Assembly (NCBI GenBank): GCA_000503875.1
Contig: CP006913.1
Location: 270,001-302,000 of the forward strand
Reading direction: 5' to 3'
Source of the DNA: Candidatus Saccharimonadota bacterium
GTDB taxonomy: Bacteria; Patescibacteriota; Gracilibacteria; Absconditabacterales; Absconditicoccaceae
Length of the DNA: 32,000 nucleotides
The notes under the pieces were generated by a model. It saw nothing but the letters and a program-made list of their open reading frames with translations. It was not told the DNA's origin and made no database searches. The stretch's first letter is position 1. Every line of letters begins with the position of its first letter. Positions 7,945 through 31,639 of the stretch are shown here, one piece after another. Made by a program: the position numbers and the translations under genes.

Positions 7945-9327
<1,383 letters not shown>

Positions 9328-9337
9328 GGGAAGTAAG

Positions 9338-9384
9338 TAATAAATTAAATATTTTTTTATAGTGATCAACTAACAATTTCTGAT
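9338..9384. repeat. 47-bp direct repeat, copy A (non-coding duplicate of the atpG 3' end plus downstream sequence)
   Basis: Identical base for base to 10738-10784: 'taataaattaaatatttttttatagtgatcaactaacaatttctgat'. Flanking bases differ on both sides. The offset is exactly 1400 bp. Confidence 0.9.
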
Positions 9385-9398
9385 TATAATTGTTCTGA

Positions 9399-10727
9399 TT
9401 AATATGTTTGCGCACCTCACCATTCAATTGCTGAGAATCATGTTCTTGTGAATGATTGTAATTTTTGTTCTGGTATAGAAATAGGTTTATCTAGTCATTT
9501 GAATACCATAAATATTCTTTGTATACTATCTGGTTTTGGTATTATTGTTAGTTGAGCTTGGTCTGTATAGTCTTTTCCAGCGAATCTAATTGCAGCATAT
9601 GGATGCTGATTCATAAGTGGTAATCGATATACAATAAATTCATTATATTCATTAGGTGTTAAACCTAAATATGTAAGTTTTTCTTTGAGAAATGATGTAT
9701 AGTTCTTTTTTTCAATAACAAATCATTCATTTATACTCCATGGTTTCATTTTTTTTGCTTCCCAAAATATATATGAATATTTATTATCATCAGCTTTATT
9801 TATTAGTTCTCCATCTGGATTTGCAATTACATTTCGTGTATTGTTTTCTCAAATTTCAGGATATGTTGTGGAAAAAATTCATTTAAGATTTATTTTTACA
9901 CTTACTGCTGTAGGTTTTGTTGGATAGAGATATATTACAGGTTTTTCACCATAACCATCAGCTGTTTCGAATGTCGATAATAATGAACTACTTATAGATT
10001 TGATTTTTCAATCAACAATTTGTTTTGTTATTCAATATGTTTCATTATGTACCATATCTCATAAATATGATGTAATAATTACTCCAAAATAGTATGTGTT
10101 ATTTCATTTGTATGTATATTTATATTTCACTTCTCATCTTTCTGTTCATATCCAATTCCAGTATCCTGAATATGTTTTTGAATATCGGTTTGCATCTCTT
10201 TTTGATCCTGTTGTTAAAGAGAGAGCATAATCATATTTTTTATCATTAACTGCTCAATAATATTCATTTATTAGATCAATATTTTTGATATGATTAATTA
10301 CTTCTTGATCACTTAATTTCATATCTTGTAGAACTTTATTCATAAGCTCTGTATTTCCAAAAACACTATTATCATTATTATAATAATGATTTTTATAATC
10401 CCATACATTATAATAATAAATAGAAATTAATCTGGCTACATTTTTACTAACTCATCAGAAAAAGTTATTATAGTCTATACATCCTGCACCATCACATTCC
10501 AAGTTGGTATCAATTGTTGGTTTTGTATCTGTTTCTGCAGGAACAGACTTACTTTCCATAGTTTCTGTTGTATTTATTCCTTCAAGGGGTATTGAAGTAA
10601 TTGCTGGTATACCTACTAATTCTGGAGAATTATTTATTGCTGTATTATCAATTATTGGTTGTTTTTCTTGTACAGAACATCCAGTTAGAACTAACAATGG
10701 TATTATAGCAAATAAAATCTTTTTCAT
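9399..10727 (-). CDS. lipoprotein of unknown function (442 aa), inserted between atpG and atpD
   Basis: Track ORF 10455..10727 gives the signal peptide plus lipobox ('MKKILFAIIPLLVLTGC'). My hand translation continues in frame through about 15 TGA codons to TAA at 9399-9401. No standard-code ORF of 60 aa or more exists there, as expected for a TGA-rich gene. Confidence 0.65.
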
Positions 10728-10737
10728 TTGAGCAGAT

Positions 10738-10784
10738 TAATAAATTAAATATTTTTTTATAGTGATCAACTAACAATTTCTGAT
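10738..10784. repeat. 47-bp direct repeat, copy B (overlaps the last 9 codons and stop of atpG)
   Basis: Identical to 9338-9384. It covers the atpG 3' end (10757-10784) and the 19 nt downstream. Confidence 0.9.
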
Positions 10785-11659
10785 ATTTCTTGGGTAATTT
10801 TTTGTTGACGAGTTTTATTATACACGGTCTGTAATCCACTTACGATTTCACCACAATTATCTTTGGCATTTTTCATAGCGAGCATTCTTGAAGCTTGTTC
10901 TGATGTCTTATTATTCAATACCGCGTAATAAACGATATGATGCACAATATCTTCAATTAATGATTTTGCATATGTTTTTGGATCTGGTTCTAGTAATAGA
11001 TTGTTATTTGGTACCAAAGCAATATTATCTAACTTTTTATCTATATTTTCCAAGAACGCATCGAAACTTTCTTGATCAAGTGGATAGAGTTTAAATCTCA
11101 AAGGCACCTGCATTACTACATTCTTGAAGTAGTTGAAATAGATTTTGATCTTGGCATAACGATTTTCTTTGATTGCTTGTTTGATATAGACGAAGACGCT
11201 ATTCAAATCATTTTCTACAAAGTTGTCTTTGATATGACAGGTTCCTACGACATTCCATCCTGCTCCCACAAAAAAATCTAATCATTTTTTTCCGATAACA
11301 AAGATATCTACGTTTTCTTTTGCTTCTTTGATAGTTCCATATTTCTCTTGAAGATGCTTAATAAGTTTGCTATTGAGTGATCCACATAATCATTTATCCG
11401 TAGTTACCAAAATAATCAATCTTCTTCCAAAACTATTCTTTGTATCTTTGTTTGTTTGGTTATTTTCATCGAAAATATCTATATGATCTTTGATGGCATA
11501 TAAAACCCCCAAAAACTGCTTCATAAACCCTCTAAAATTGAGTGTTCTCTGTTTTAGTTTTTGTAATTTAACGGTAGAAACTATCTCCAAAGCCTTAATG
11601 ATCTTTTGAAGATTATGTACTGATTTTATTTTGGTCTTGATAAGCTTCGTATTAGCCAT
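10757..11659 (-). CDS. atpG: F1 ATP synthase gamma subunit (300 aa)
   Basis: 'MANTKLIKTKIKSVHNLQKIIKALEIVSTVKL...' continues through TGA at 11390-11392 into track ORF 10766..11269. It ends '...YNKTRQQKITQEISEIVS[TGA]SL' with TAA at 10757-10759. Confidence 0.9.
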
Positions 11660-12107
11660 GTCTCATCTTTTTTAGATGTAAATCAGCGGTAATTTTTTGT
11701 AATGACAAATAGGACTTTTCGATACTATCTATATCTCCTTGGAGTTTAATTTCTTTGATATCTCTTTCTAATTGTTCTTTCATTTTTTCTAGTTCTTGTA
11801 TATCAGATATAGGATTTGCAGTTGCTCCCGAGACAAAAACAATAAGATTCTCACCATCTACATAAAGAGATCAGTTGCCTATTGATAGATGAATTTCATC
11901 CTCTTTAAACAAAAAATCCGTACCTTCTATAAAAGTATTTCCTTGTTTATCTTTTGGTAAGAAACTCAAAATTCCTGGTTTCACGATACTTCCCAAAGGA
12001 ATATGATTTGGTAATACGGTAATTACTCCAGCTTCCGTAGGGATGGTCGTTTTTATTACCTCTCAGTGGAAAATTGTTTCTTGCGGTGAAATTAAAGTTA
12101 GCTGCAT
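11652..12107 (-). CDS. atpC: F1 ATP synthase epsilon subunit (151 aa)
   Basis: Hand translation reads 'MQLTLISPQETIFH[TGA]EVIKTTIPTEAGVITVLPNHIPLGSIVKPGILSF...HLSIGN[TGA]SLYVDGENLIVFVSGA...'. This matches the epsilon beta-sandwich plus helical tail. It is absent from the track because of TGA codons. Its 3' end overlaps the atpG start by 8 nt. Confidence 0.8.
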
Positions 12108-12129
12108 GTAGTATATATAAAACTAAAAT

Positions 12130-13638
12130 CTATTTCACTTCTATTTCTTCCACAACAATTGTAATTAATTCTTTGATTCACAATTCTATTTCGTCATCTA
12201 AAGATTGCTTCTTGATAATATTCTGATTTAATTTTTTGTGGGTTGTATCTAGTTTATTATATAAGTTTTTTTCAAATTCCAATATTTTATCCAACGGCAA
12301 GGTATCCATATATCAGTTGATACCAGCATATACTAATACTACTTGCTTATTGAATGGAATAGGGGAGTTATTGCTTTGTTTAAGCATTTCTACAAGCCTC
12401 TTTCCTTTTTCGATTTTATTTTGAGTTGAAATGTCTAGGTCTGAAGCGAATTGTGCGAAACTAGCCAACTCTCTAAAGGTTGCTAATTCTAGTCTAAGTT
12501 TACCAGCAATTTTTTTCATGATTTTGGTCTGGGCAGATCATCCTACACGAGAAACAGAGAGTCCTACATTGATTGCAGGTCTGATTCATGAGTTGAAAAG
12601 ATCAGTTTCTAAGAATATTTGTCCGTCTGTGATAGAAATTACATTGGTTGGAATATATGCGGAAACGTCAGAATCCAAAGTTTCAATAATAGGGAGAGCG
12701 GTCAAACTTCCTCCACCATGTTCATCGCTAAGTCTTGCAGCTCTTTCCAAAAGTTTGGAATGCAAGTAAAATACATCACCAGGATAGGCTTCTCTTCCAG
12801 GAGGTCTTCTCAAAAGGAGGGAAACTTCTCTATAAGCAACGGCATGTTTCGTCAAATCATCATAGATGATCAACGCATCTTTTCCATGTTCCATAAAATA
12901 TTCTCCTAAAGCACATCCTACGTAGGGAGCAATATATTGCAATACGGATGGTGCATTAGCCGGAGCATTAACAACGATGGTGTAATCCATAGCTCATTTC
13001 TCTTTGAGCATTTCTACGATTCTTCTTACTTTACTATCTTTTTGCCCAATCGCAACATAGATACAGATCACATCTTTTCCTTTTTGGTGGATGATAGTAT
13101 CCGTTGCAATAGTGGTTTTACCTGTTTGTCTATTTCAGATAATCAATTCTCTCTGTCCTCTTCCAATTGGCACCATGGTATCAATTGCTTTAATACCAGT
13201 TTCCAAAGGTGTATTTACTGATTTTCTAGCAATAACTCCAGGAGCAATTTTTTCAACGGGAGAAAATGCTGTTGGCGTGATTTTACCTTCATCATCTATA
13301 GGATTACCCAAGGCATCCAAGACTCTACCCAAATATTCTTCTCCTACTCAGACGTCCAAGACTTTTCCCATAGCTTTTACTACACTTCCTTGTCAGAGAC
13401 CTTCTTGGCTTCCCAATACGAGAATTCCGACAGTATCTGGAGAAAGATCGAGCACAAGCCCCTTAACTCCATTTTCAAATTCTACAATTTCAGAAAACAT
13501 CGCATTGTCCAAACCAATCACGGTTGCGACACCATCTTTCAATTCTAGGATTTCTCCTTTTTTGGAAAACTGTTGTTTGAGGTCTTTACCATCCAAGTCT
13601 TTTTCAATTTTTTTGAGAATATCCGATACGAGATCCAT
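12130..13638 (-). CDS. atpA: F1 ATP synthase alpha subunit (502 aa)
   Basis: Track ORFs 13393..13638, 13135..13332, 12586..12990 and 12313..12519 share one frame and are joined by TGA. It contains 'GRGQRELII[TGA]NRQTGKT' and '[28 protein letters not shown]'. Stop is TAG at 12130-12132. Confidence 0.95.
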
Positions 13639-13674
13639 AGGTAATTAAGATAATGATATAAATTTACTATAATA

Positions 13675-14133
13675 TTATTTCAATAAAATATCTAAATCTG
13701 AATCTAAATTTCTTTTGTATTGATAACCATTTCCTTTGATTGTTATCCCTAAGTGGAAACACTCATCATTTTGCAAACTATATGCTTTAAATTCTTTTTT
13801 GAGCACAGCATCTACTTTACTATGAATATCTTTTTGAGCAGAGAGAGGAGCTTGTACGGTAAATTGTATTTCTTTTTCTTGCTTTTGGAGTTCTTTGATC
13901 AAGATGTTCAAATGTTTTTTACTCCAAAACCCATATTTCCCCAAAAATGCAATAAAATCTCGCAATCCCTGATCATTAGTTTTGATACTATTTTTGTAGT
14001 CCGAAAGAAATATATTTCTATTATATTTTTTTACCAAGATATTCGCTATTTTTACATATTCAACAAAATGAGCGTCCTTTTGAAGACTTGGCAAATATTC
14101 TTGTATAAATGTTTTAAATGAGAGATTTGACAT
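13675..14133 (-). CDS. atpH: ATP synthase delta (OSCP) subunit, short form (152 aa)
   Basis: Intact ORF positioned between atpF and atpA. The C-terminal 'GITIKGNGYQYKRNLDSDLDILL' resembles the delta C-terminal motif. Confidence 0.65.
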   Translation of the reverse strand: MSNLSFKTFIQEYLPSLQKDAHFVEYVKIANILVKKYNRNIFLSDYKNSIKTNDQGLRDFIAFLGKYGFWSKKHLNILIKELQKQEKEIQFTVQAPLSAQKDIHSKVDAVLKKEFKAYSLQNDECFHLGITIKGNGYQYKRNLDSDLDILLK

Positions 14134-14141
14134 GAGGGATA

Positions 14142-14633
14142 TTATTTTTTTAAATCACTAATCAATGTATCCAGGTATTTATCTTGCAACTTTTCATCGC
14201 TTCACAAAATCTTTTTAACAAGCATTTTACTAGTTCTTTTTAAAGAATCAGTCCAATTATTGGTTAGTGATTCTTCAAGCTTTTTAGCTTCTTTCTCTGC
14301 TTGTAAAAGAATAGCTTTTGCTTTTTGTTCTCATTCTTTTAAAATAGTTTTACTATGTTCTTTGGCAAGAGTTTCTCCTTCATAAAGAATAGATTCAGAG
14401 TGTTTTTTTGCATGAGAGATGATATCTTCAGCTTCTATTTTTGCTTTATCCAAAATCTCTAGGTATTCAACATCAGCATTTTTTAATTTTTTTACCAAAT
14501 TTCTTCTTTCTTCGATGGAAGTAGATATAGTATCTCATAAAAATCTTTTAAAGATCCAAAAAAGCAATAGAAAATTGAAAATCTGAGCGATTACGGTAAA
14601 CAAATCTAATCCTATTGATTCTAGAAATGACAT
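14142..14633 (-). CDS. atpF: Fo ATP synthase b subunit (163 aa)
   Basis: Hand translation reads 'MSFLESIGLDLFTVIAQIFNFLLLFWIFKRFL[TGA]DTIS...', followed by a long charged helix. This is an N-terminal TM segment plus coiled-coil stalk. Position in the operon supports the call. Confidence 0.75.
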
Positions 14634-14660
14634 AATTTTTTCATAAAACAAAGATAAAAT

Positions 14661-15104
14661 TTATCAAAGTATCTTAAAAGCAACGATAAGTGCATAAATA
14701 GCTGATGATTCAACTAAGGCAACAAACAATACCATAAATGTCATTATTTTATTCTTTGCTTCAGGATTTCTTTGTAGGGCATCAATAGCGGCAGCAACAA
14801 CCCATCATTCTCATAATGATACAGGAAGTCCAGCAATACCCATTACAAGTCCTGCAGAAAGAGCACTTGCTACACTGATAGCAGATCCTAGATCAATAAT
14901 TTTGAACGCAATAATCAATCCATAGATGGCTGCAGATTCAACTAAGGCAATACCCAAAACAGTAAATACCATAAGTGATCAACTAAGTTCTGGATTTTTT
15001 CCAAGAGCTTCAACTGATTTTTTGGATACAACTGCGTGTCCTAAAGAAACTCAGATAGCACATAGTCATAGTGCAATAGCTGCTCATAATACATGTAGTT
15101 CCAT
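14661..15104 (-). CDS. atpE: Fo ATP synthase c subunit, tandem-duplicated (two hairpins fused, 147 aa)
   Basis: Single frame translated by hand. The first half is '...AIALGLCAIGVSLGHAVVSKKSVEALGKNPE...GIALVESAAIYGLIIAFKII'. The second half is '...SAGLVMGIAGLPVSLGEGWVVAAAIDALQRNPE...FVALVESSAIYALIVAFKIL'. Several glycines of the Gly-rich helix 1 are TGA-encoded. Stop is TAA at 14661-14663. Confidence 0.85.
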
Positions 15105-15131
15105 AATTCTATAATTATTATATAAAAGATA

Positions 15132-15944
15132 TTACTCTTGTACTATCTTAACAAAGATAGCGGTAAGAAGGGATATTACAAATGCTTGAACGACAGCAAC
15201 CAATAGTCATTGAACGAGAAGAATTATTGGCAGAAGGAATGGGAAATCTACTTTTGCTATAAGTTGTGATAATCAATTTGTACCAGCCACTAACATTCAC
15301 AAAAGAATAGTTCATGCTAACATATTTCCCCATAATCTATGTGAGAGAGAAATAAGCTTTGCTAGATTTCCAATAATATCCAATATTCAAATAAACAATG
15401 ATATGATTATGTCGAAAAGTTTTACAACAACCTTCATAGGATAGTAAACAAACGGATTCATAGTTCATTTTTCTACGTCAATAATTTTTTTACCCGTTAT
15501 AGGAATATATTCATGAACAAAATGAATGAATCAATGTTTCTTTGCTTGCATAAAAAGTACAAATACAACAGAGAATATTGCTAATGCAACGTCAAAGTTT
15601 TTATCACTAGTAGGTATTGTTATATAATGTTCTAGTGTAGGTCGAGCTAATGCAAATGAATCAACAAACAATCCCATGAAATTTGAAATGAATACAACAA
15701 AAAACAAACTGACTATGGTTGATTTTACTCGTTTCTTTTCATGTTCTCATAAAATTTCTTCAAAAACTTTATATATTTCTTCATAGAGAAGTTCAAAAAT
15801 AATACTGATTTTACTTTTTTTCTTAAAATGAAATAATGCGATAAAAATACCTATAATAAAAATTTCTGCCAGTACTCAAATGTAGCTTGACCTTATAATA
15901 AAATCAAATCAGAAGATATGTAACGTAGGTAATATATGTTCCAT
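15132..15944 (-). CDS. atpB: Fo ATP synthase a subunit (270 aa)
   Basis: Starts 'MEHILPTLHIF...' and contains 'SLSHRLWGNMLA[TGA]TILL...' with the conserved stator Arg motif. It ends '...LLVAVVQAFVISLLTAIFVKIVQE'. It is the first gene of the operon. Stop is TAA at 15132-15134. Confidence 0.85.
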
Positions 15945-16297: not shown

Positions 16298-17659
16298 ATG
16301 TCTTATGATATTATGAAAACGATTTTTCGATTTAGACAAGACCTGAGAATACAAGATAACCATTGACTAACTGTGGCTTTCAAGAATAGCGACCAGATTT
16401 TACCTATTTTTATTATAGATACAAAATTACTTCAAGAATTTCAATGATTACAAGATCCAAGACTTGGCTTTATCAAAGATGCTCTTCTCAATTTACAACA
16501 ACAATTACAAACAATCAATCTGAATCTTTTAGTTATGGTTGGCAATCCACAAGAGCTTATCCCTTCGCTTGTACGTGAGCATTCCATTGGGCAAGTTTAT
16601 ACAAATAAATCATATGATACCTACGGAATAGGGAGAGATTTAAGAGTGCGTCTGGCGCTCAGAGAAATGGGCGTGCACATGCACGTGGAAAATGATTATT
16701 TGCTGGTAGCGCCAGAAGTCTTGAAACCGTATCAGATCTTTTCTCCCTATTCCAAAGCTTGGGAAAAGGTTGTTATCTCAGACACCTACCAGTTACCTCG
16801 CGACAAAGTCGCCCTCCTTTTCCCAAGTCGCGACATTGCTCAACTCACTCAAAAATCACTTGATCAACTACCATCTTCTCATCCTTATCGAAAATTTCAA
16901 GATCCACTAAAAATACTCAAAAAGTTTGATTTCAAAAATTACGATGAAAAGAGAAATATGCTAGGAGCTGGCGGGACCAGTAAAATTTCTCCATATCTCA
17001 GATTCGGCGTTATCTCCTCCCGCCAGCTCTATCACTTCGCACATCAAGCAAACAATCAAACCTTTATCAAAGAACTGGCGCGAAGAGAATTTCGATATCA
17101 ACTTTCTTATCATTTTCCAGAAGTATTAGTACAATCCTTCCAGGCAAAAAGAAGAGGTATTCCGCGAGACAACGACAACAAACTCTTCGAGGCTTTTTGC
17201 CAAGGGAAAACCTGATATCCAATTATAGATGCCGCGATAACTCAACTCAAAACAGAAAACCGAATGCACGGCCGCGCCAGAATGATAGTCGCATCATTTC
17301 TAACTAAAGATCTCCTTATCGATCGAAAGCGATGAGAAGAATTTTTCAAAAAGCACTTGCTAGATTATGACCAAATAGTTAACATCGGAAACCGACAGCG
17401 ATCAGCTTCAGTTGGCGCAGACCCAAGACCACTGAGAATCTTTAGTCCGATTCTTCAAGCTCAAAGATTTGATCCTGAGGCAAAATATATCAAAAAATAT
17501 CTCCCAGAACTCAAAAATATCCCAGCAGAGCAGTTGCACGATCCACTCACATATTCATTGAAATATATTAAACCAATCATCGATCACAGACTAGCTACCA
17601 AAAGAGCCAAATCTGTTTATGATCAAGCCAAAAGTGAATATTATGAAGAAAATTATTAA
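16298..17659 (+). CDS. phr: deoxyribodipyrimidine photolyase (class I CPD photolyase/cryptochrome family, ~453 aa)
   Basis: Track ORFs 16535..17215 and 17357..17659 are in one frame, and the frame extends upstream to ATG at 16298 (alternative start ATG at 16313). Family motifs include 'F[CGA]FRQDLR', 'ELA[CGA]REF', 'TGYPIIDAA', 'N[CGA][20 protein letters not shown][CGA]K[CGA][TGA]EEFF' and 'GN[CGA]Q[CGA]SAS...[28 protein letters not shown]'. Confidence 0.9.
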
Positions 17660-17723: not shown

Positions 17724-19808
17724 ATGCAAAAAATTTTGCTTCAGAATTCTTATTTCAATATTTTGGAAATGCTTGATCAACAGCCATGATCAGAGCAAAT
17801 GCTCAATGCATTAATCCAATTAGAATCAGATATTAAAGCTGGAATTTTTGATATATTACAAAATTACCAAAAGCAAAACAAAGAAATGGAAAATACAAAA
17901 ACATACCAAGCAATACATGGAACAGTACTTGCATTAAGAAATACGTTGGAAGCTAGAATTATGCAAATAGCAACTGGCGATAAAGTAAGTATTCATGATT
18001 TATTGAATCAATGTATTATCAATCTCAATAAAATATTGGAAAATCAAGAAAATATTGAAGATATATTAAAAAATATGAAAATTTATTTTAGAAAAGTAGA
18101 AGAAACTATTCTTCCGCCAGATGAACAACAAGTTCAGACAGGTTCTTGAAATTGATGATTTGAAAAGAAAGAATGATGTAATAAATTTGGTTCATTAATA
18201 ACATTGCTTAGAAAAAATGAAATATATACAGATGATTTGTTTGTGATTACTTGAGTAAATCAATTAAATCAAATGAGAGAAGAAACATATCTTTATATTC
18301 ACATCCCAAGAATAAATAAAACAATTCTGATTAATAATGGTTATGGAGAAAAAACATTCATTTATGATGGCTATATAGAAGTAGAATATTTTTTGAATAC
18401 TACAAAAAAATGAATCAAACAAAATGAAAATATTGTTAGCGTGAATTTTGACTATGAAGACAGTGCAAATTGGGAAACTAAGATGAGATATTATTTGTTT
18501 GAAAAAGGAAAAGAAAATAAAGATGGATGATCGGTTTGAAAAAAAGTAAATATAAAAGATTTTTTAAGAGTGCCAGAATGATGGTATACGAATAAATCAT
18601 TGGCTACTAATTTGAGCGTTGCACCAAATACAATAAAAAATATAGTTAAACTATATAGAGAAACAAATCCAGAATATTTAAAAAAATATTTAGATAATCA
18701 CAGTAATCTACGAGAATATTATGCGCCAGAATTGTGTAAAATTATAGAAGAAGAAATAAAAAATAGGTGAGAAGAATCTCCAGAATGATGGTTTACAAAT
18801 AATGCTTTAGCTGAAAAATTGGAAAAAAACAAAGATGCTATAAAAAAAATAGCAAAAAAATATATCGTAACAAATCCTGAACGATTCAAGGAATATATAA
18901 ATAAATTATGAAGAATAAGAGAATATTATCATCCAGAATTGTGTAAAATTATAGAAGAAGAAATAGAAAATAGATGAGAAAAAGCTCCAGAGTGATGGAA
19001 AAACAATAATAAATTAGCTAGTGATTTATGAGTAGATTTTGATAGTGTGAAAAAAATAGCTGAAAGTTATAGATGAAATAGTCTAGATTGGTTTGTATAT
19101 TACTTAGATAATATAAACAACTTACGCGAATACTATGCACCAGAGTTATGTAAGATTGTAGAAGAAGAAATAGAAATAAAAAATAGATGAGAAAAAGCTC
19201 CAGAGTGATGGAAAAACAATAATAAATTAAGATTAGAATTGACGGAATCTTTTTATGTAGTAAAAGATATTGCAAATAAATATAGAGAAACAAATCTATT
19301 GTGGTTTAAACAATATCTAGATAATCATAATAATTTACGAGAATATTATCATCCAGAGTTATGTGAGATAATAAGAAAGGAAGCGAAGAATAGAGGAGAA
19401 AAGTCACCAAAGTGATGGGAAACAAATAAATGATTAGCCGACAAAATAGGAACATCAGAACAATCTATAAAATTGGTAATAGAAAAATATAGAGAAAAAA
19501 ACACAGAACGATTTAAAGAATATTTAGATAAAAATAATAGATTACGAGAACATTATCATCCAGAATTATGTAAAATAGTAAAAAAAGAAATAGAAAATAG
19601 ATGAGAAAAATCACCAAAATGACGAAACACAAATAAATGATTAGCAAAAGAAATTGGTGTAGATCCCCTTACTATAAAAGGACGTACCGAGAAATATAGA
19701 GAAACAAATCCAGAACGATTTAAGGACTATTTAGATAAGATGAATAGAAAGACAATTCATTATAGTCCAGAATTCTGTGAAATAATTAAAAAAGAACTCC
19801 AAAAATAA
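17724..19808 (+). CDS. large lineage-specific protein (694 aa): ~280-aa N-terminal region plus six tandem ~70-aa repeats
   Basis: Track ORF 17799..18149 is only a fragment. Hand translation from ATG 17724 runs through more than 30 in-frame TGA codons to TAA at 19806-19808. The repeat consensus is 'PEGW.TN..LA..L......IK.I..KYRETNPEWFK.YLD..NNLREYY.PELC.II..EI.NRGEK'. Confidence 0.7.
18570..19808 (+). repeat. six in-frame tandem coding repeats, period about 210-216 nt
   Basis: Example: 'aatagatgagaaaaagctccagagtgatggaaaaacaataataaatta' recurs near 18969 and 19182. The motif 'ccagaattgtgtaaaattatagaagaagaaata' also recurs. Confidence 0.8.
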
Positions 19809-19892: not shown

Positions 19893-21638
19893 ATGCAATA
19901 CCTCAAAGTAACCAATCTTACCAAATCATATACGGACAAATCACTAGTTGATCATGTTGATTTTACGATTACCAAAAATCAGAAGATTGCTTTGATTGCC
20001 AAAAATGGAGCGGGGAAAACAACCTTGCTCAAATTATTGATGAAGGAAATCGATCTGACGGATGGGGAAATAGATTGGAGAGAAGATATAAAAATCTGAT
20101 ATTTATGACAAGAGTATAAACTCGACAAACACGTAACGGTTCGTGATTTTCTTTTTGATTTTGATACCAATGCGAATCGGGAACAAGAAGTTGAACTCAA
20201 TATTAGTGTGGATAAATTGAGAATCAAATCGTATCTTGGACAAACGATGGATACGTTATCATGAGGGGAAGCAAAGCGTGTGATGTTGGCGAAGGTGTTG
20301 GCGGGAAATCCTTCAATGTTGGTACTAGATGAGCCAACGAATCATCTTGATCTCGATATGATTGAATGGTTAGAACGATATCTCAAGAAACATCATATTA
20401 CCTTGTTTATGGTGACCCATGATAGATATTTTCTGGAAAGAGTATGTACCGATATTTGGGAGTTGGAAAGAGGAAAAATACATCAATATACAGGAAATTA
20501 TTCTTATTTTTTGGAGAAAAAAGCTATTCGCGAAGAAAACGAAAAAATAGAGATGCACAAACTTCACCAGTTGTTCAAAAAAGAGCTTGCCTGGATTCGT
20601 AGAGCTCCGCAGGGGAGACAAACCAAAGCCACCTTTAGAGAAAAAAGATTCTCCGATATCGAAGAAAAATTTGATACCAAGAGAGATGTTCGTTTTTCGG
20701 AAAGCGCAAAATTAGAACTCGGTGTAGAAGAAAGACGCTTATGAGGCAAAATATTGCATATCAAAAATATACAAAAATCTTTCGACACCAAAAAAATAGT
20801 CAATGATTTTTCTCACGAATGTAGACACGGTGAACGTATAGGAATTATCGGAAAAAACGGAGTCGGAAAATCAACATTTATAAATATGATTATGGGCCAA
20901 GAAACCTTGGACAAAGGAACTATTGAAGCAGGGGAGTCTGTGGTTTTTGGATATTACGAACAAAAACAAATCGATTTTCCAACAGACAAAAGACTTATAG
21001 ACATTGTTCCCGATCCAAAACTTCTCGAAAAATTTCTTTTTTTCCCCAAGCAACAACATCAATTTGCTCATAGCTTAAGCGGTGGAGAAAAAAGAAGATT
21101 ATATATGCTAGCTATCCTGCAAAAGAACCCAAACTTTTTAATTATGGATGAGCCAACCAACGATTTGGACTTAATAACTTTGGGAGTGTTAGAAGATTTT
21201 CTTTCCAATTACAAAGGCTGCTTGATCGTGGTTTCTCATGATAGATTTTTTATGGATAAAATTGTGGACCATATCTTCGTCTTCGAAGGCGAGGGCGTAA
21301 TCAATGACTTCCGATGAACCTATTCCCAGTACAAATCCGCCCAAGAAGAAAAGCTCAAAAAAGGCAAAAAAGAAAATAAACCGCTAGCAAAACAAGTTGA
21401 AGCCCCACTTTCCGACAAACCAAAGAAACTTTCGTATATGGAACAACGTGAACTTGATCAGTTGAGTAAAGATATTCAAACATTAGAAAAGAGAAAAGAT
21501 GAAATTCAGATTCTATTTAATGATCCAAATTGCCCTTTTGATGATATTAAGAAACTTGGAATCGAACTCAGTACCTTGATTAAACACCTCGAAATTAAAG
21601 AAGGAAGATGGTTTGAATTAATAGAAAGAGCTTGATAG
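19893..21638 (+). CDS. ABC-F family ATPase (two ABC domains, linker and C-terminal coiled coil; ~581 aa)
   Basis: Track ORFs 19854..20099, 20280..20744, 20754..21317 and 21438..21635 share one frame across TGA codons. Walker A motifs are 'AKNGAGKTT' and 'GKNGVGKST'. Signature motifs are 'LS[TGA]GE' and 'LSGGE'. It also has 'THDRYFL' and 'SHDRFFM'. Stop is TAG at 21636-21638. Confidence 0.85.
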
Positions 21639-23112: not shown

Positions 23113-24312
23113 ATGATATTTGCAATAATTCTGCTTATTTTAGGATTGCTTTTGCTTGGTTTTTGAGCTAATTATCTGATTACTTCTAGTGTGAGAATCG
23201 CAAAACATTTTCATGTTTCTAGTTTGCTTATTGGATTAACTATTATAGCGATAGGAACTTCGGCACCAGAATTATTTCTTTCTGGATTGGCTGCAATTCA
23301 ATGAAATTGAGCACTTTCAGTAGGAAATGTAATAGGATCAAATATATTTAATCTGGGGTTTATTCTTGGTCTTAGTGCTATTATTATGCCAATATTCATC
23401 AAGAAAAAAATTATCTATAGAGATGGTTTGGTTTTACTTATTATTACTGCAGCTGTTCTTGCAATGCTATGGGATCAACACGTTGCTCGGCGAGAAGGAG
23501 CAATTTTACTTGCAGGATTAGTCTGATATAATGGATATCTTCGAATCAAAAAAGATGCACCAACAGATGAAGAAGTTGAAATATCAAAACCAAAACTCAA
23601 AAATTTAGCATATGTTGCACTTGGATTAGTAGCTCTTGCATCTGTTCATGCAACAACTATCGATGGTAATTTTACTGTATCATTTGGTATGTCCTTATAT
23701 TCTGGAATATTTCTGGGGATATTAGGATTATCATTTCTCGTAGCAATTTTCAAAAAAGATATTCCAGAATTTCATGATATTGGAAATGGAACTTTGATGA
23801 ATATTATTAAGTTGATAGCAAGTCTTGGTATATTAGTGTTGGCTTCAGAATTAGTAGTGAGTGCTGCTGTATATATTGCACAGACTTTTTGAATTTCAGA
23901 ACGAGCAATAGGTGCAACGATAGTTGCTGCAGGAACCAGTTTGCCAGAAGTAGCTGCAACAGTAGCAGCTATTCTCAAGAAAAATTATGATATGGGAGTA
24001 GGAAATGTCATAGGGTCAGATATTTTCAATATTTTATGAATTATAGGAATAAGTTCAGTTATAGCACCATTAAATCTTACTTCAAAATGTGTTGTTTTGA
24101 CTCAGTGTGATACATGATTTTGGCAGTTGTTATTTAGAGATAATATATTTTCTGTATTGATTTTATTTTTAACTTTGGGAATAACATTTCTTTTTATGAG
24201 AACAGGTTGGAAATTATCAAAAAGAGAATGAATTATATTATTTGTTTTTGCATTACTCAGAATGATTTTTGAAATTAATCCTAATTTTTTTACTAAATGG
24301 TTTGGTGGCTAA
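23113..24312 (+). CDS. CaCA-family cation/Ca2+ exchanger (YrbG-like, 399 aa)
   Basis: Two alpha-repeats are present: 'LLIGLTIIAIGTSAPEL...GNVIGSNIFN' and 'AIGATIVAAGTSLPEV...GNVIGSDIFN'. It reads through several TGA codons; track ORF 23689..23892 is an internal fragment. Confidence 0.8.
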
Positions 24313-26455: not shown

Positions 26456-26497
26456 ACTCTTCCTTGCTATTTTACTCCGAAATCGTAGCATAAACAA

Positions 26498-26520
26498 ACG
26501 CAATTGTTGCGTATATTTTA
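26498..26520 (+). terminator. weak terminator-like hairpin
   Basis: 'acgcaa' (26498-26503) pairs with 'ttgcgt' (26507-26512), followed by an A/T-rich tail. Confidence 0.35.
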
Positions 26521-26538
26521 TTAGTTACAATTACATGA

Positions 26539-28269
26539 ATGTTATTTAGTGAATGTTGATTAAAACCAGGTTTGTTAAAATCTTTGGCTGCTATGGGATA
26601 TACCCAAGCTACACCAATCCAAGAGAAAGTAATGAAAATAGCGCTCACATGAGCAAATATTGTATGACAATCTCAAACAGGAACAGGAAAAACTGCGGCC
26701 TTTTTGCTTCCTATTCTCAATAAAATAGATACCAATAGAAAATCAGTGCAAGTATTAATTCTTGCTCCAACTAGAGAATTAGTAGTCCAAATTTGAGAAG
26801 AAATCAGAAATCTGACAAAATTTTACGGAGTGAGTTTTGCTTGTCTTTACGGAGGAGCAAGTCCTAACGTTCAAAAAGAAAAACTCAGAAGAAGCCCTGC
26901 AATTGTTATTGCAACTCCAGGAAGATTAATGGATTTTATGAATCAAAAAGTGATAGATGTGAGAACGGTTGATTATTTTATTCTCGACGAAGTTGATAGA
27001 ATGTTGGATATGGGATTTGTCCGCGATATCAAAAAAATTCGAGCTCAACTTCCATCAGTAAAGCAGACACTTACTTTTTCTGCTACTATGAACAATGATA
27101 TGAAGACTATTATCAAAGATCATATTTCTACCTACGAATTTATCAAAATAGGAGAGGAAGTGACGGTTGATAAAATTCATCACAGATATATTCCCATCGA
27201 ACACGAGCAAAAGCTTTTCAACGTGATTAAACTTATCGAAGCTCATCCAGATGATAGAATTATTATTTTTACGCATACCAAAAGAAATACAAAAACTATT
27301 CATCAAATTTTAATCTGAGATGGTTTCAACGCAGGATTGTTAAATGGGGATATGGCTCAAGGAAAAAGACAGTCAACCCTCAACGATTTTAAAATAAACA
27401 AAACACAAATACTGGTTACAACAGATGTTGCTGCCAGAGGACTAAATATGGAAAATGTAGGATTGGTTATCAACTTCGATGTGCCTGCTGATGCTAAGAG
27501 TTATATTCATAGAATTGGAAGAACAGGAAGAGCAGGAGCAGAAGGAAAAGCTATTATGTTAGTTTCTCCGCTTGAAAGACCTTTACTTCAAGATATAGAA
27601 AAAGTTCACAAAATCAGAATACAACAATCCGAACATATTGCACAAATAGATAGACAAGGATGATATGGAAATCTTCGTCTTGATAGATCAACTGACAAAA
27701 AAGGTGGGAAGAAAATGATGCCCAGAAAGCGCCTAAGTCCTACCCAAAAATATGGAAAGCTTCCCACATTCGAAGATCAAAAACCTATAAAAACAGAAAA
27801 TAATTTTCGCAGCAATCCAAACCATAAAAAACACGAACGTAGTTTATGAGCTCCCAACAGAGGAGTAGATTGATATAAATGATCAAAACCGGATAGCAGA
27901 CCAGAAGGAAGATCATTTGGAGCGAGACCAGATAACAGAGGACCACGCCCAGATAGCAGATGACCACGCCCAGAAGGGAAATCATATGGAGCGAGACCAG
28001 ACAGCAGACCATCAACAGGATGATATAAATGATCAAAACCAGATAGCAGATGACCAAGACCAGAAGGGAAATCATACGGAGCAAGACCAGATAGTAGACC
28101 ATCAACAGGATGATATAAATGATCAAAACCGGATAGCAGAGGACCACGCCCAGAAGGGAAATCATATGGAGCAAGACCAGATAGCAGAGGACCAAGATCA
28201 GAAGAAAAATCATACGGGGCAAAGCCACAGTGATCATTTAGAGGTGCAGGAAAACCAAGACACAGATAA
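26539..28269 (+). CDS. DEAD-box ATP-dependent RNA helicase with a repetitive basic Gly/Arg/Pro-rich C-terminal tail (576 aa)
   Basis: Contains 'GYTQATPIQ', motif I '[TGA][12 protein letters not shown]', 'PTRELVVQI', motif II '[11 protein letters not shown]', 'SAT' and motif VI '[10 protein letters not shown]'. Track ORFs 26830..27318 and 27337..27663 are fragments. The frame continues through the repeat region to TAA at 28267-28269. Confidence 0.9.
27868..28200 (+). repeat. in-frame tandem repeats encoding '[30 protein letters not shown]'-type units
   Basis: 'tgatataaatgatcaaaacc(g/a)gatagcaga' occurs at 27870, 28021 and 28111. 'ccagaagggaaatcata(t/c)gga' recurs three times. Confidence 0.85.
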
Positions 28270-28270
28270 C

Positions 28271-28300
28271 AAAAAAGACGGATTACTCCGTCTTTTTTTT
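28271..28300. terminator. bidirectional rho-independent terminator shared by convergent genes
   Basis: In 'aaaaaagacggattactccgtctttttttt', 'agacgga' pairs with 'tccgtct'. It is flanked by an A-run and a T-run, and lies between the helicase stop (28269) and the minus-strand ABC-F stop (28299). Confidence 0.8.
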
Positions 28301-29771
28301 ATTTAACTAATTTTCCCAAATCAATTGTTTCTAAATAATCTAATTGATGTACAAATCCTTCGTCATGACTGACCATAATCATTGCTCCTTGATATTTATT
28401 CAAAGACTCTGCAATCACAGGAAGGTGACGGAAATTTATATGGTTCGTTGGTTCATCAAGAATGAGAAGATGCGGTTTTTGAAGTACAAATCTTGCATAG
28501 CAGAGGAGTCCTTTCTGTCCTTCAGAAAGAGATCCAATAGTGTTTTTAAGTAAACCTCCTGTCAGCAAGAATTGAGAGGCAACACGATAAATATCTTGAT
28601 CTGTTGTATCTCCAGCAACTTCGCGAAGATCATCCCATACGATTTTTTCCATATCCAAAGCATTAAAATCTTGACTATAATATCACACCTTTACATCATT
28701 ATGAATCATTGCATCATGATCATGTGCATTTACAAGCTTCTTAAGAAGTGTTGATTTTCCGATACCATTAGGCCCAGAAAGAATATATCTTTGATTTTTT
28801 TTGATAACAAGCGGTAGTTTATGAGTCACAACTTCATGTGATGAATTCATTAATCCAACTTTATGTATTGATACAATAGGTCCTACATAATTTTCAAATG
28901 GAATAACGAAGGGAGTAATAGTCTTATCATCTTTTCTTACTTCTACAATATTCTCTTCAGCATCTTCTACTTCGTCTCTCATTTTACTTGCTAATTTACG
29001 CATTTTACCTCATTTATTCGAAAAGAAATTTATTTTTTCTTTGGCATCAGCAATCTTTTTTTCGGCTCTCGCATTCTGCATTTGTTCTTTTTCAATTTGC
29101 GCAGCGATTTGTTCTACAACATCATAGTAATCTCCCCAATATTGTTCAACCTGGCAACGAGCTTTATTGAGATATAACACACCATCAGTAAAGAGATTGA
29201 GAAAATCTGCATCATGGCTAATTACCACAACGGTTTTATCGTACTCCATCAAAAAACTAATCAGATCACCAATACCATTTCTATCAAGATTATTTGTTGG
29301 TTCATCAAGAAGAAGAATATCTGGACGTTGAATCATTGCATATGCCAAAAGCAATCTAGCTTGTTGTCCACCAGAAAATTCTTTGATTGGTTTGTTTGTT
29401 GGTGCATTAAAATTAACAGCCTTCAATACTTCAGTTATCTTTCTATCTATTTGATAATCTTTCTCTTCAAAGGCAGTTTCAAAAAATTCTTTAATCGTAA
29501 GATCTAATTGCTCTCTAGGAATTACTTGTCTTGCAATAGCGATAGTATTTCCACTAACAATATTGATTTTTCCAGCTTGTGGTTTGAGTTCTCAAGTAAT
29601 CATTTTGAATATTGTTGATTTTCCAGCTCCATTTTGTCCCATAATTGTTATCTTGGTATTTTGGCGAAGCGAAAAACTACTCTCTATCAAAATAGGGTGT
29701 TTCCCATCATTATAAGCAAAAGACACGTCATCAAAACGAAGAATAACTGGATTATTTTGATTGTTTGACAT
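28299..29771 (-). CDS. ABC-F family ATPase, second paralog (490 aa)
   Basis: Track ORFs 28299..28658, 28683..29003 and 29010..29426 share one frame across TGA codons. The frame extends to ATG at 29769-29771 ('MSNNQNNPVILRFDDVSF...'). Walker A motifs are 'GQNGAGKST' and 'GPNGIGKST'. Signature motifs are 'FSGGQQ' and 'LSEGQK'. Confidence 0.85.
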
Positions 29772-29800
29772 GGTATTCTAAAAAAAATATAAATCAAATT

Positions 29801-31621
29801 CTACTCTAATTTTCCTGATTTTTGAGCAACCTTTCTTGCATTGTCGGTAAGGTATATTTTTCTAATTCTGATATTTTTTGGAGTAATTTCCACATATTCA
29901 TCTTGTCCAATATAGGCAAGACAATCTTCTAAGGTCATAGGTACAATGGGTTCTAATCTCATTGCTTCATCATTTCCACTTTCTCTTACATTTGTTTGTT
30001 GTTTATTCTTTGTAAGATTAACACTCATATCACCAGGTTTTGCACTTTCACCAACAACCATTCCTTCATACATTTCTGAAGCTGGTTGGATAAAAATTAC
30101 CCCTCTTTCTTGAAGCTTCCAAATACTATATTTCATACATTTACCCGTTTCTTGACTAATCATTGATCCTGTTGTTCTTCTAGGAATATCTCCTTTATGA
30201 GCAGTATAATGAGAGAAAGAACTATACATAATTCATTCTCCTTTGGTAAGAAGTACAAACTTAGATCTAAATCCAAGTAATCATCTTGTTGGTACATCAA
30301 ATTGAAGCGTAGTTAGTCCATGATGAGTCATCATATCGGTCATTTGTCCTTTTCTTTTGGCAAGAAGATCGATAATAGTTCAAGACATTGCTTCATTAAC
30401 ACTGATAACTACGTGTTCAATTGGTTCCATTTTTTGTCCGTCTTCCATCTTGAATATTACTTGAGGAGCAGAAACTTGAAGTTCAAATCCTTCTCTTCTC
30501 ATAGTTTCAATCAAAACAGACAGATGAAGTTCTCATCTTCCTGCAACAGTAAATCTATTTCCTCATTTATCAAAATCGATTTCTAGTCCTACATTTGTTT
30601 GAAGTTCTTTTTGAAGTCTTTCCATAATATTTCTAGAAGTTACCATTTTCCCTTCACGTCATGCAAAAGGTGAATCATTAACTAGAAAATCCATTTTTAA
30701 TGTTGGTGCATCTACTTTGATATGAGGAAATGGTTCGCATCATTCGACACCAATTGTTTCTCCTACATAGATATTAGCCAATCATGCAATAGTTGCAATA
30801 TCTCAACATTGAGCAGTTTGTGTTTCTACTCTTGAAAGTCCAAGGGTAGTATAAAGTTTTGAAATTCTTCCTTTTCTTTTGTTACCTGCATTATCAAATA
30901 CGACAACATCTTGTCCTGTACGAACAGTTCATTCATAAATTCTTCAAATACCAAGTCTACCTACAAAATCATCATAACCTAAATTAGCAACTTGCATACG
31001 AAATGGTTTGTCAGAATAATCTGGTGCTTCAGGAACAACTTTTTCTATAAGTTCGAACAAAGGAAAAATATTTCACGTTTTTCTAGCTTCTTCAAGATCT
31101 TTGAGTTCGTTGAATGCATATCCACCTTTTGCACTACAGTAAATAACAGGAAAATCCATTTGTTCATCAGTAGCTCATAGGGTGAAAAACAATTCAAAAA
31201 GCTGATCTACTACCCAATTAGGTCTAGCAGTATCTTTATCAATTTTATTGATAACAACGATTGGATTAATACCAAGTTCCAATGACTTTTTGAGTACAAA
31301 TTTAGTTTGTGGCATAGGTCATTCATAGGCATCAACGATCAAAAGTACGCTATCAACCATTTTGAGAGCTCTTTCTACTTCACTTCCAAAATCTGCATGT
31401 CCTGGAGTATCTATAATATTAATAGTATTTCCATTGTAATGCACAGACGTATTTTTGGAATAAATAGTAATACCTCTTTCTTTTTCTTGGTCATTACTAT
31501 CCATAATTAAAGTCTGATCTTCCATTTGTTTCATGGTTCCTGACTGAGTAAGGAATGCATCAACCAAGGTTGTTTTACCATGATCTACATGGGCAATAAT
31601 TGCTATATTTCTAATAGCCAT
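29801..31621 (-). CDS. typA: translational GTPase BipA/TypA (606 aa)
   Basis: Track ORFs 31319..31621 ('[21 protein letters not shown]...[14 protein letters not shown]') and 29801..30229 are the two ends. Hand translation links them in one frame through many TGA codons, for example 'VGRLGI[TGA]RIYE[TGA]TV'. Stop is TAG at 29801-29803. Confidence 0.9.
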
Positions 31622-31639
31622 AATAATAGTCTATTGAAT

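Follow-up and report, generated by a model that had tools for sequence, protein, structure and literature searches.

Codon CGA probably specifies tryptophan throughout a tandem-repeat protein of an Absconditabacterales-type genome

The window analyzed here is the whole stretch of 32,000 nucleotides (nt) at positions 270,001 to 302,000 of contig CP006913.1. Our subject is a gene in this window that encodes a protein of tandem repeats, in which the codon CGA is found both in the place of TGG and in the company of Arg codons (Table 1). The GC content of the window is ~32% (range, 0.26 to 0.36). Since 175 in-frame TGA codons lie within its 27 long open reading frames (ORFs), TGA is a sense codon here. 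AGA is the dominant Arg codon (268 occurrences), and CGA, CGG, and TGG occur 40, 2, and 66 times, respectively. The repeat gene corresponds to the public protein record P0001, which is located on a 91-kb sediment-metagenome contig (ENA ERZ936476 k127_980329, PRJNA167727). In its public translation, P0001 has Trp for TGA and Arg for CGA, as seen in 'PEWW', 'NPERF', and 'PKWR', which amounts to 24 + 7 = 31 wrong residues in the repeat protein.

An earlier reading of the nucleotide sequence, referred to here as the original prediction, had described six tandem repeats in a 694-amino-acid (aa) protein. This was confirmed by Tandem Repeats Finder, which gave a repeat period of 207 nt, and by the six unit starts. 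The repeats share pairwise identities of 57 to 73% at the nucleotide level and of 36 to 64% at the amino acid level. The nearest unit of each repeat is a sister repeat (57 to 63% identity), with units of foreign proteins at 45 to 55%.

The original prediction had compared the codons at three columns of these repeats. Its readings of column 4 ('PEG-W'; TGG in five repeats and CGA in the sixth) and of column 35 ('NPE-W-F') are all correct, the repeats without CGA at column 35 carrying TAT (18675), TGG (19089), and TGG (19302). At column 47 ('NL-x-EYY'), the series CGA, AGA, CGC, CGA, and CGA stood with its coordinates, but the AAG given for repeat 6 is wrong. The ungapped alignment places ACA there; AAG at 19749 is the codon before column 47 and aligns with Leu. 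Columns 4 and 35 together make up 12 cells among 409 codons. Four of the seven CGA codons sit in these cells, and random placement of at least four of seven codons into them has a probability of 1.4e-5. The three CGA codons at column 47 have the local context N-L-CGA-E-Y/H-Y in common, written TTA/CTA CGA GAA around the codon.

Table 1. Coordinates of the features discussed (positions within the window)
Feature	Coordinates	Strand	Remarks
Repeat-protein gene	17724..19808	+	694 aa when TGA is read as Gly and CGA as Trp; N-terminal domain followed by six repeats, predicted to be winged-helix-like
N-terminal domain, ~283 aa	17724..18572	+	11 in-frame TGA, no CGA
Six tandem repeats, 69-71 aa each	18573..19805	+	Tandem Repeats Finder and unit alignment
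Repeat units 1-3	18573-18779, 18780-18986, 18987-19199	+	Unit alignment
Repeat units 4-6	19200-19406, 19407-19613, 19614-19805	+	Unit alignment
CGA, column 4 ('PEG-W'), repeat 6	19623..19625	+	TGG in the five other repeats
CGA, column 35 ('NPE-W-F'), repeat 2	18882..18884	+	Codon tabulation and family column
CGA, column 35, repeat 5	19509..19511	+	Codon tabulation and family column
CGA, column 35, repeat 6	19716..19718	+	Codon tabulation and family column
CGA, column 47 ('NL-x-EYY'), repeat 1	18711..18713	+	Hypervariable column
CGA, column 47, repeat 4	19338..19340	+	Hypervariable column
CGA, column 47, repeat 5	19545..19547	+	Hypervariable column
AGA (Arg), column 47, repeat 2	18918..18920	+	One nucleotide from CGA
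CGC (Arg), column 47, repeat 3	19125..19127	+	One nucleotide from CGA
ACA (Thr), column 47, repeat 6	19752..19754	+	Ungapped alignment
Column 29, conserved Arg of the 'YR' motif, six repeats	18657..19700	+	AGA, ATC, AGA, AGA, AGA, AGA
Class I CPD (cyclobutane pyrimidine dimer) photolyase gene	16298..17659	+	Adjoins the repeat gene; 10 CGA, 1 TGG
CGA-free genes	7945-9369, 10757-13644, 14142-15131, 28299-31630	-	TGG used

Two protein searches retrieved 19 proteins with the same repeat besides the window's own. Column statistics were derived from 16 of these 19, all of which are free of the table-4 mistranslation pattern of P0001 and P0015; the genes of the four homologues whose DNA was fetched are translated by the standard table. 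With a hidden Markov model (HMM) made from the repeats of the window, 95 units were obtained from the 16 proteins, and 62 columns were ranked. Column 4 is an invariant Trp (91 of 91 homologous units), and column 35 is Trp in 49 and Tyr in 34 of 93 units, with Arg in none of the 91 and none of the 93 units, respectively. The likelihood over the seven CGA sites, calculated with the column frequencies of the homologues, was highest for Trp (log10 of -6.67), followed by Tyr (-7.92), with Arg below -13; Trp still ranked first with the three column-47 sites counted as independent. The claim of the original prediction that CGA is equivalent to TGG was thus borne out by columns 4 and 35 and by the likelihood, as well as by the photolyase described below. 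As for TGA, column 3, a Gly in 77 of the 86 homologous units, reads TGA in all six window repeats ('PEGW'), and column 66 of the window repeats reads TGA four times and GGA once.

The photolyase gene that adjoins the repeat gene was aligned with solved photolyases from the Protein Data Bank (PDB). Its CGA codons fall on Trp residues of these proteins at elaWref, ipW, gWmh, idW, and gnWqW. Of the other CGA sites, two correspond to aromatic residues, one is at a variable position (R/R/W/K), and one has no aligned counterpart, which places 7 to 8 of the 10 CGA codons at conserved Trp or aromatic positions. Three of these sites are W314, W367, and W390 of A. nidulans, counted along the chain. The electron-transfer Trp triad of the Escherichia coli photolyase consists of W306/W359/W382, and the constant offset of 8 between the A. 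nidulans and E. coli numberings suggests that the CGA sites include this triad. Elsewhere in the window, the CGA codons of the TrmB, MtgA, EngB, ABC-F, and CaCA alignments are at variable or aromatic positions, and no aligned CGA of these five or of the photolyase was found on a universally conserved Arg. There was one match of CGA to Arg, in the WLE-R motif of EttA, seen against EttA chains only; this position is variable in other ABC-F proteins.

These data bear directly on the alternative that CGA has retained its standard meaning of Arg and that the 'Trp' columns of the repeat protein simply tolerate this residue. The database gene call P0001 was translated in just this way (PKWR, NPERF). 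However, Arg is absent from columns 4 and 35 of the homologues, its likelihood is lower than that of Trp by more than 6 orders of magnitude, and only one Trp would remain in the photolyase, which would be devoid of both the W-x-W motif and the triad. The standard Arg meaning is refuted by the photolyase alignments and the family column statistics, and we consider it scarcely conceivable. Two other explanations were tried and rejected. C-to-U editing of CGA would yield UGA, hence Gly and not Trp, and column 4 is never Gly. An assembly artifact does not fit with the intact ORF and with a pattern that is consistent in three independent orthologues.

Column 47 is of a different nature. It ranks third of the 62 columns by variability, with an entropy of 3.64 bits and 17 residue types. 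Among 90 homologous units, the counts were 21 for R, 12 for A, 7 each for F and Y, 6 for E, 5 each for V, S, and L, 4 each for C and H, and 1 for W, so that Arg accounts for 23% and aromatic residues for 21%. Moreover, Arg and aromatic residues alternate at this column inside single standard-code proteins, as in P0008 (HYRRRF), P0009 (YRRFH), P0011 (RSRFY), and P0013 (FGRYER). Judging from these homologues, the mixing of Trp and Arg at column 47 appears to be what this position does where the code is undisputed. The genuine internal conflict that the original prediction had seen at this column hence dissolves, and its first explanation, a position that tolerates both residues, is backed by the hypervariability and by the Arg/aromatic alternation.

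We consider it very likely that every CGA of the repeat protein is read as Trp, that column 47 tolerates Arg and Trp, and that the code in use is the one known from Absconditabacteria. The genome would be of the Absconditabacterales type (candidate division SR1), with UGA reassigned to Gly and CGA/CGG to Trp. At columns 4 and 35, CGA and TGG would be synonymous spellings at Trp/aromatic positions that are structurally conserved, whereas column 47, which is among the least constrained positions of the domain, would carry Trp (CGA) three times, Arg twice, and Thr once. The decoding tRNA would be a tRNA(UCG) that bears the identity elements of Trp, as described in the literature (Shulgina and Eddy, 2021). 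CGA as a Trp codon would be a single substitution away from the Arg codons AGA and CGC, a step that the original prediction had pointed out correctly, which would allow an easy interchange of Trp and Arg at a tolerant site; the apparent signal of CGA among Arg codons may be explained by this interchange. The codon pattern, the column statistics, the codons of the orthologues, and the occurrence of CGA at conserved Trp in other genes are direct observations, whereas the course that the substitutions took at column 47 is an inference. Given the closeness of the sister repeats and the common context of the three column-47 CGA codons, the latter are probably copies, multiplied by repeat amplification, of a single event or a few, and are not three independent signals.

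Several observations weigh against this reading. Outside the gene, Trp is rare at column 47 (1 of 90 units) and the modal residue is Arg, with 21 of the 90, so that the column-47 sites taken by themselves favor Arg ~20-fold each, if they are independent. The tabulation of orthologues described below is thin, comprising two other UGA=Gly orthologues. ARAGORN detected no tRNA gene in the window or in eight fetched loci. No experimental confirmation of CGA as Trp was found in the literature searched, and Shulgina and Eddy (2021) stated that experiments are needed and that ambiguous translation is still possible from a computational point of view.

No Pfam family scored above threshold for the repeat protein, the HTH_3 family reaching 17.5 bits versus a cutoff of 23. 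An AlphaFold2 (AF2) model was made for the homologous unit from P0012 with an alignment of 55 sequences. The model (predicted local distance difference test [pLDDT] score of 95.8) consists of a short strand, two helices, a hairpin, and a C-terminal helix, its main elements being H7-14, H18-26, E36-40, E46-50, and H52-61. Column 47 lies in the second strand (E46-50) of the predicted beta-hairpin 'wing'. The wings of winged-helix domains are typically exposed and variable, and column 47 would accordingly be a surface position. The top PDB matches of the model in Foldseek were all winged helix-turn-helix (wHTH) domains, namely, MarR-family regulators, BldC, and Pukovnik Xis. These matches were weak, with a best E value of 0.025, none at or below 1e-3, and template modeling scores (TM-scores) of 0.4 to 0.6 (maximum, 0.62). 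The predicted unit would resemble wHTH domains of the MarR type, the MerR-like BldC, and Xis in its helix-turn-helix, beta-hairpin wing, and C-terminal helix, but it differs from them by the tandem fusion of 6 to 8 units, which follow a conserved N-terminal domain. Based on the model, the protein is best described as a putative tandem array of winged-helix-like modules behind this domain, and DNA binding is a plausible guess.

The N-terminal domain has a distribution of its own. It is 66% identical to its counterpart in P0019/P0020, the closest homologues of this domain, whose cluster is annotated as Candidatus Absconditabacterales, and it is also present in P0015 and P0022. In the Absconditabacterales locus L028 (10001-11299), as well as in L029 to L033, the same N-terminal domain precedes a wholly different C-terminal repeat, which consists of two copies of ~75 aa and is rich in TGA and in CGA/CGG-type codons. 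Because of this other repeat, P0019/P0020 were not usable as rows of the column tabulation. The domain seems to serve as a platform for interchangeable repeat arrays, as far as can be judged from these sequences.

Columns 29 and 65 are the conserved Arg columns of the repeat and served as internal controls. In the homologues, column 29 is Arg in 66 of 93 units; in the window gene, column 65 ('NR-G-E') reads AGG once and AGA four times, and the conserved Arg residues of columns 29 and 65 together are written AGA/AGG in 10 of 10 cases and CGA in none. The fraction of CGA among the Arg/CGA codons of column 47 (3 of 5) differs from that at these conserved Arg columns (0 of 10; Fisher's exact test, p=0.022). 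Standard-code homologues do behave differently, since CGA was observed in L003, L005, and L007 at columns 29 and 47 and never at column 4 or 35.

Two orthologues with the same code (UGA=Gly) were recovered, L002 (P0015) and L034 (P0022), which are 38 to 44% identical to the repeat protein. In L002, column 4 reads TGG, TGG, TGG, and CGG, column 35 reads TGG three times and CGG once, and column 47 reads AGA, AAA, TAT, and AAT. In L034, column 4 reads TGG, TGG, CGA, TGG, and CGA, column 35 is TGG in all five repeats, column 47 reads AGT, AAC, CTC, TCA, and AGT, and the Arg codons at columns 29 and 65 are all AGA. Neither CGA nor CGG was present at column 47, 29, or 65 of the two orthologues. Furthermore, L034 has in its N-terminal domain a CGG ('LSE-z-L') whose counterpart in L002 is TGG ('LSEWL'). 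When the three genes were pooled, CGA/CGG made up 8 of 29 codons at Trp columns but none of the 19 codons at conserved Arg (p=0.015). Such a codon-per-column tabulation had been suggested in the original prediction, according to which Arg codons at all three columns of the orthologues would undermine the Trp meaning; in L002 and L034, CGA/CGG occurred at Trp columns only, and Arg codons at all three columns were found in neither. A pattern for the junction 'HY.PEL ... PEgW' (TGA=Gly) recognized three junctions of the window and retrieved no further orthologues: its five loci in genome contigs were judged to be chance matches by organism titles and expected rate, without an HMM check, and none of its 14 loci in metagenome contigs matched the repeat HMM.

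The same orthologues inform on a historical explanation of column 47, in which its CGA codons are relics of ancestral Arg codons at a tolerant site that are now read as Trp, and thus fossils of a codon capture that was incomplete or recent. In accordance with such an origin, standard-code homologues often write the Arg of column 47 with CGN codons (CGA three times, CGG twice, CGT twice, that is, seven CGN against a single AGA), and CGC is kept in repeat 3 of the window gene. On the other hand, L002 and L034 already use CGA/CGG as Trp and yet have no CGN at column 47. In addition, the sister-repeat closeness suggests that amplification or homogenization took place within the lineage after a shared reassignment, and the standard-code homologues are so distant that synonymous sites are saturated. 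A recent reassignment, which was among the explanations of the original prediction, is unlikely because CGA accounts for ~37% of the Trp codons of the window and because the code is common to orthologues of 38 to 44% identity. We regard the relic explanation as improbable.

CGA might also be ambiguous or context dependent, being translated mostly as Trp with a substantial fraction of Arg and persisting at column 47, where either residue works. The original prediction had considered this possibility, and Shulgina and Eddy (2021) note that it is computationally possible. It would be in line with the mixture of CGA with AGA and CGC at column 47 and with Arg as the modal residue of the homologues. 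Codon usage across the window was counted in favor of CGA as Trp: the share of CGA relative to other Arg codons differs between genes (chi-square test, p=1e-4), and eight conserved genes contain no CGA, 19 TGG, and 123 other Arg codons (p=1e-6, for a gene set chosen post hoc and given as a lead only). The absence of CGA from highly conserved and probably highly expressed genes that keep TGG might, under ambiguity, reflect error avoidance, with the same reservation as to the post hoc set; alternatively, such genes may avoid CGA as a minor codon for Trp.

Nevertheless, ambiguous decoding should purge CGA from invariant Trp sites, and CGA is present at column 4, which is Trp in 91 of 91 units, and at 7 to 8 Trp positions of the photolyase. 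With a per-site error e, the fraction of correct photolyase would be just (1-e)^8. The context of the column-47 codons (TTA/CTA CGA GAA) provides no separation from the CGA codons of the Trp columns that would suggest a mechanism. Bacteria of the candidate phyla radiation (CPR) have no tRNA-Arg(ACG), and their CGU/CGC codons are read by the anticodon GCG, which is unable to pair with CGA (Shulgina and Eddy, 2021). Substantial ambiguity is thus unlikely, since invariant and functionally essential Trp residues, apparently including the photolyase triad, are written as CGA, and conserved Arg columns never are. Although low-level ambiguity of CGA is possible on sequence alone, we judge a substantial Arg fraction to be decidedly improbable. 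Even when combined, the two alternatives, a CGA that is mainly Trp with a meaningful Arg fraction or column-47 codons that are surviving ancestral Arg codons, have in our opinion a small chance of being correct.

A model for ambiguous decoding is available in the CUG codon (Ser/Leu) of Ascoidea and Saccharomycopsis, in which one codon is served by two tRNA identities. There, CUG is depleted at conserved sites and receives no clear call by Codetta, whereas CGA in the window is located on invariant Trp residues and has a clear signal; a depletion from conserved sites of the Ascoidea type was not observed for the CGA codons of the window.

The reading of CGA as Trp is not new in itself. In the Codetta screen of Shulgina and Eddy (eLife 2021), CGA/CGG=Trp was predicted for Absconditabacteria on top of UGA=Gly, in combination with low GC and with a matching tRNA(UCG) that has Trp identity elements (G73 and no A20), and a 2026 paper in Nucleic Acids Research takes this code as established. 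The reassignment was thus published in 2021, and the repeat gene is a member of a known phenomenon. The window resembles the Absconditabacteria code in its TGA at conserved Gly, its CGA at conserved Trp, its low GC, the dominance of AGA, and a nearest relative annotated as Absconditabacterales, and it does not deviate in any essential respect, CGG being nearly absent (2 codons). CGA amounts to ~42 per 10,000 of all codons in the window as compared with <37 in the screen, where Pfam-aligned columns were counted, so that the two values are not like-for-like.

With NCBI translation table 25 (SR1 and Gracilibacteria), the window shares TGA=Gly. In this table, CGA and CGG stay Arg, which results in 7 wrong residues in the repeat gene and 10 in the photolyase. 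The table 25 code of SR1 and Gracilibacteria reportedly goes back to work by Campbell and by Rinke, both in 2013.

The remaining genes provide further observations. In the standard-code loci L003, L004, and L005, the repeat-protein gene is directly upstream of a gene for a ~1000-aa SNF2-family helicase, whereas no such neighbor exists in the window, where the repeat gene is flanked by the photolyase and an ABC-F gene. The photolyase is exceptional in its codon choice, with CGA at 10 of 11 Trp positions versus 30 CGA and 64 TGG in the other genes (Fisher's exact test, p=2e-4); low expression, acquisition from a CGA-richer lineage, and regulation by a rare tRNA are possibilities. The CGA-free genes listed in Table 1 include those for the ATP synthase subunits alpha, beta, gamma, epsilon, b, and c, for BipA, and for one ABC-F protein; genes for a VirB4-like ATPase and an RlmL-like methyltransferase are also in the eight-gene CGA-free set. 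Of the two CGG codons of the window, the one at 20178 in the ABC-F gene is unaligned, and the other belongs to a CaCA exchanger gene (23113-24312, + strand), where CGG and CGA adjoin at 23488-23493 ('HVA-z-x-EGA') and the CGG aligns with the Trp of NCX_Mj 'FSWIDG'.

A DEAD-box helicase gene (26494-28269, + strand) ends in a 90-bp repeat of 2.7 copies that are 92% identical (27949-28188). This repeat codes for an Arg/Pro/Gly-rich motif in which one and the same repeat position is TGA (27961, 28051) or GGA (28141), and the helicase tail is a second homologue-free demonstration of TGA=Gly. The F-type ATP synthase operon (7945-15944, - strand) has the unusual order a, c, b, delta, alpha, epsilon, gamma, ORF, and beta, in which the ORF between gamma and beta (9399-10736, 442 aa) is without a Pfam match. 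The c subunit, with 147 aa and the carboxylate motifs VESAAIY and VESSAIY, one per half, looks like a fused double hairpin.

Taken together, the conflict between columns illustrates that such signals are to be weighed against the variability of the column before ambiguous decoding is invoked. Public gene calls for the contig, in the style of table 4 or table 25, mistranslate the protein, and table 25 alone is insufficient for such genomes. The three column-47 sites are ready targets for proteomics of decoding fidelity: tryptic digestion would yield YLDNHSNLWEYYAPELCK, QYLDNHNNLWEYYHPELCEIIR, and LWEHYHPELCK if CGA is Trp, and ...NHSNLR / EYYAPELCK, ...NHNNLR / EYYHPELCEIIR, and LR / EHYHPELCK if it is Arg. 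Should an Arg fraction or a relic prove to be true after all, the 'ambiguous intermediate' stage of a bacterial sense-codon reassignment would be caught alive in the repeat protein, and its selective footprint would be seen in the most conserved genes, which avoid CGA. Among sense-codon reassignments in bacteria, the change of CGA/CGG to Trp in Absconditabacteria was one of the first to be reported, by computational inference alone as far as the literature searched shows. The window offers a compact and homologue-independent illustration of it, in which TGG and CGA as well as TGA and GGA alternate among paralogous repeats and in which a photolyase has nearly all of its essential Trp residues written as CGA.

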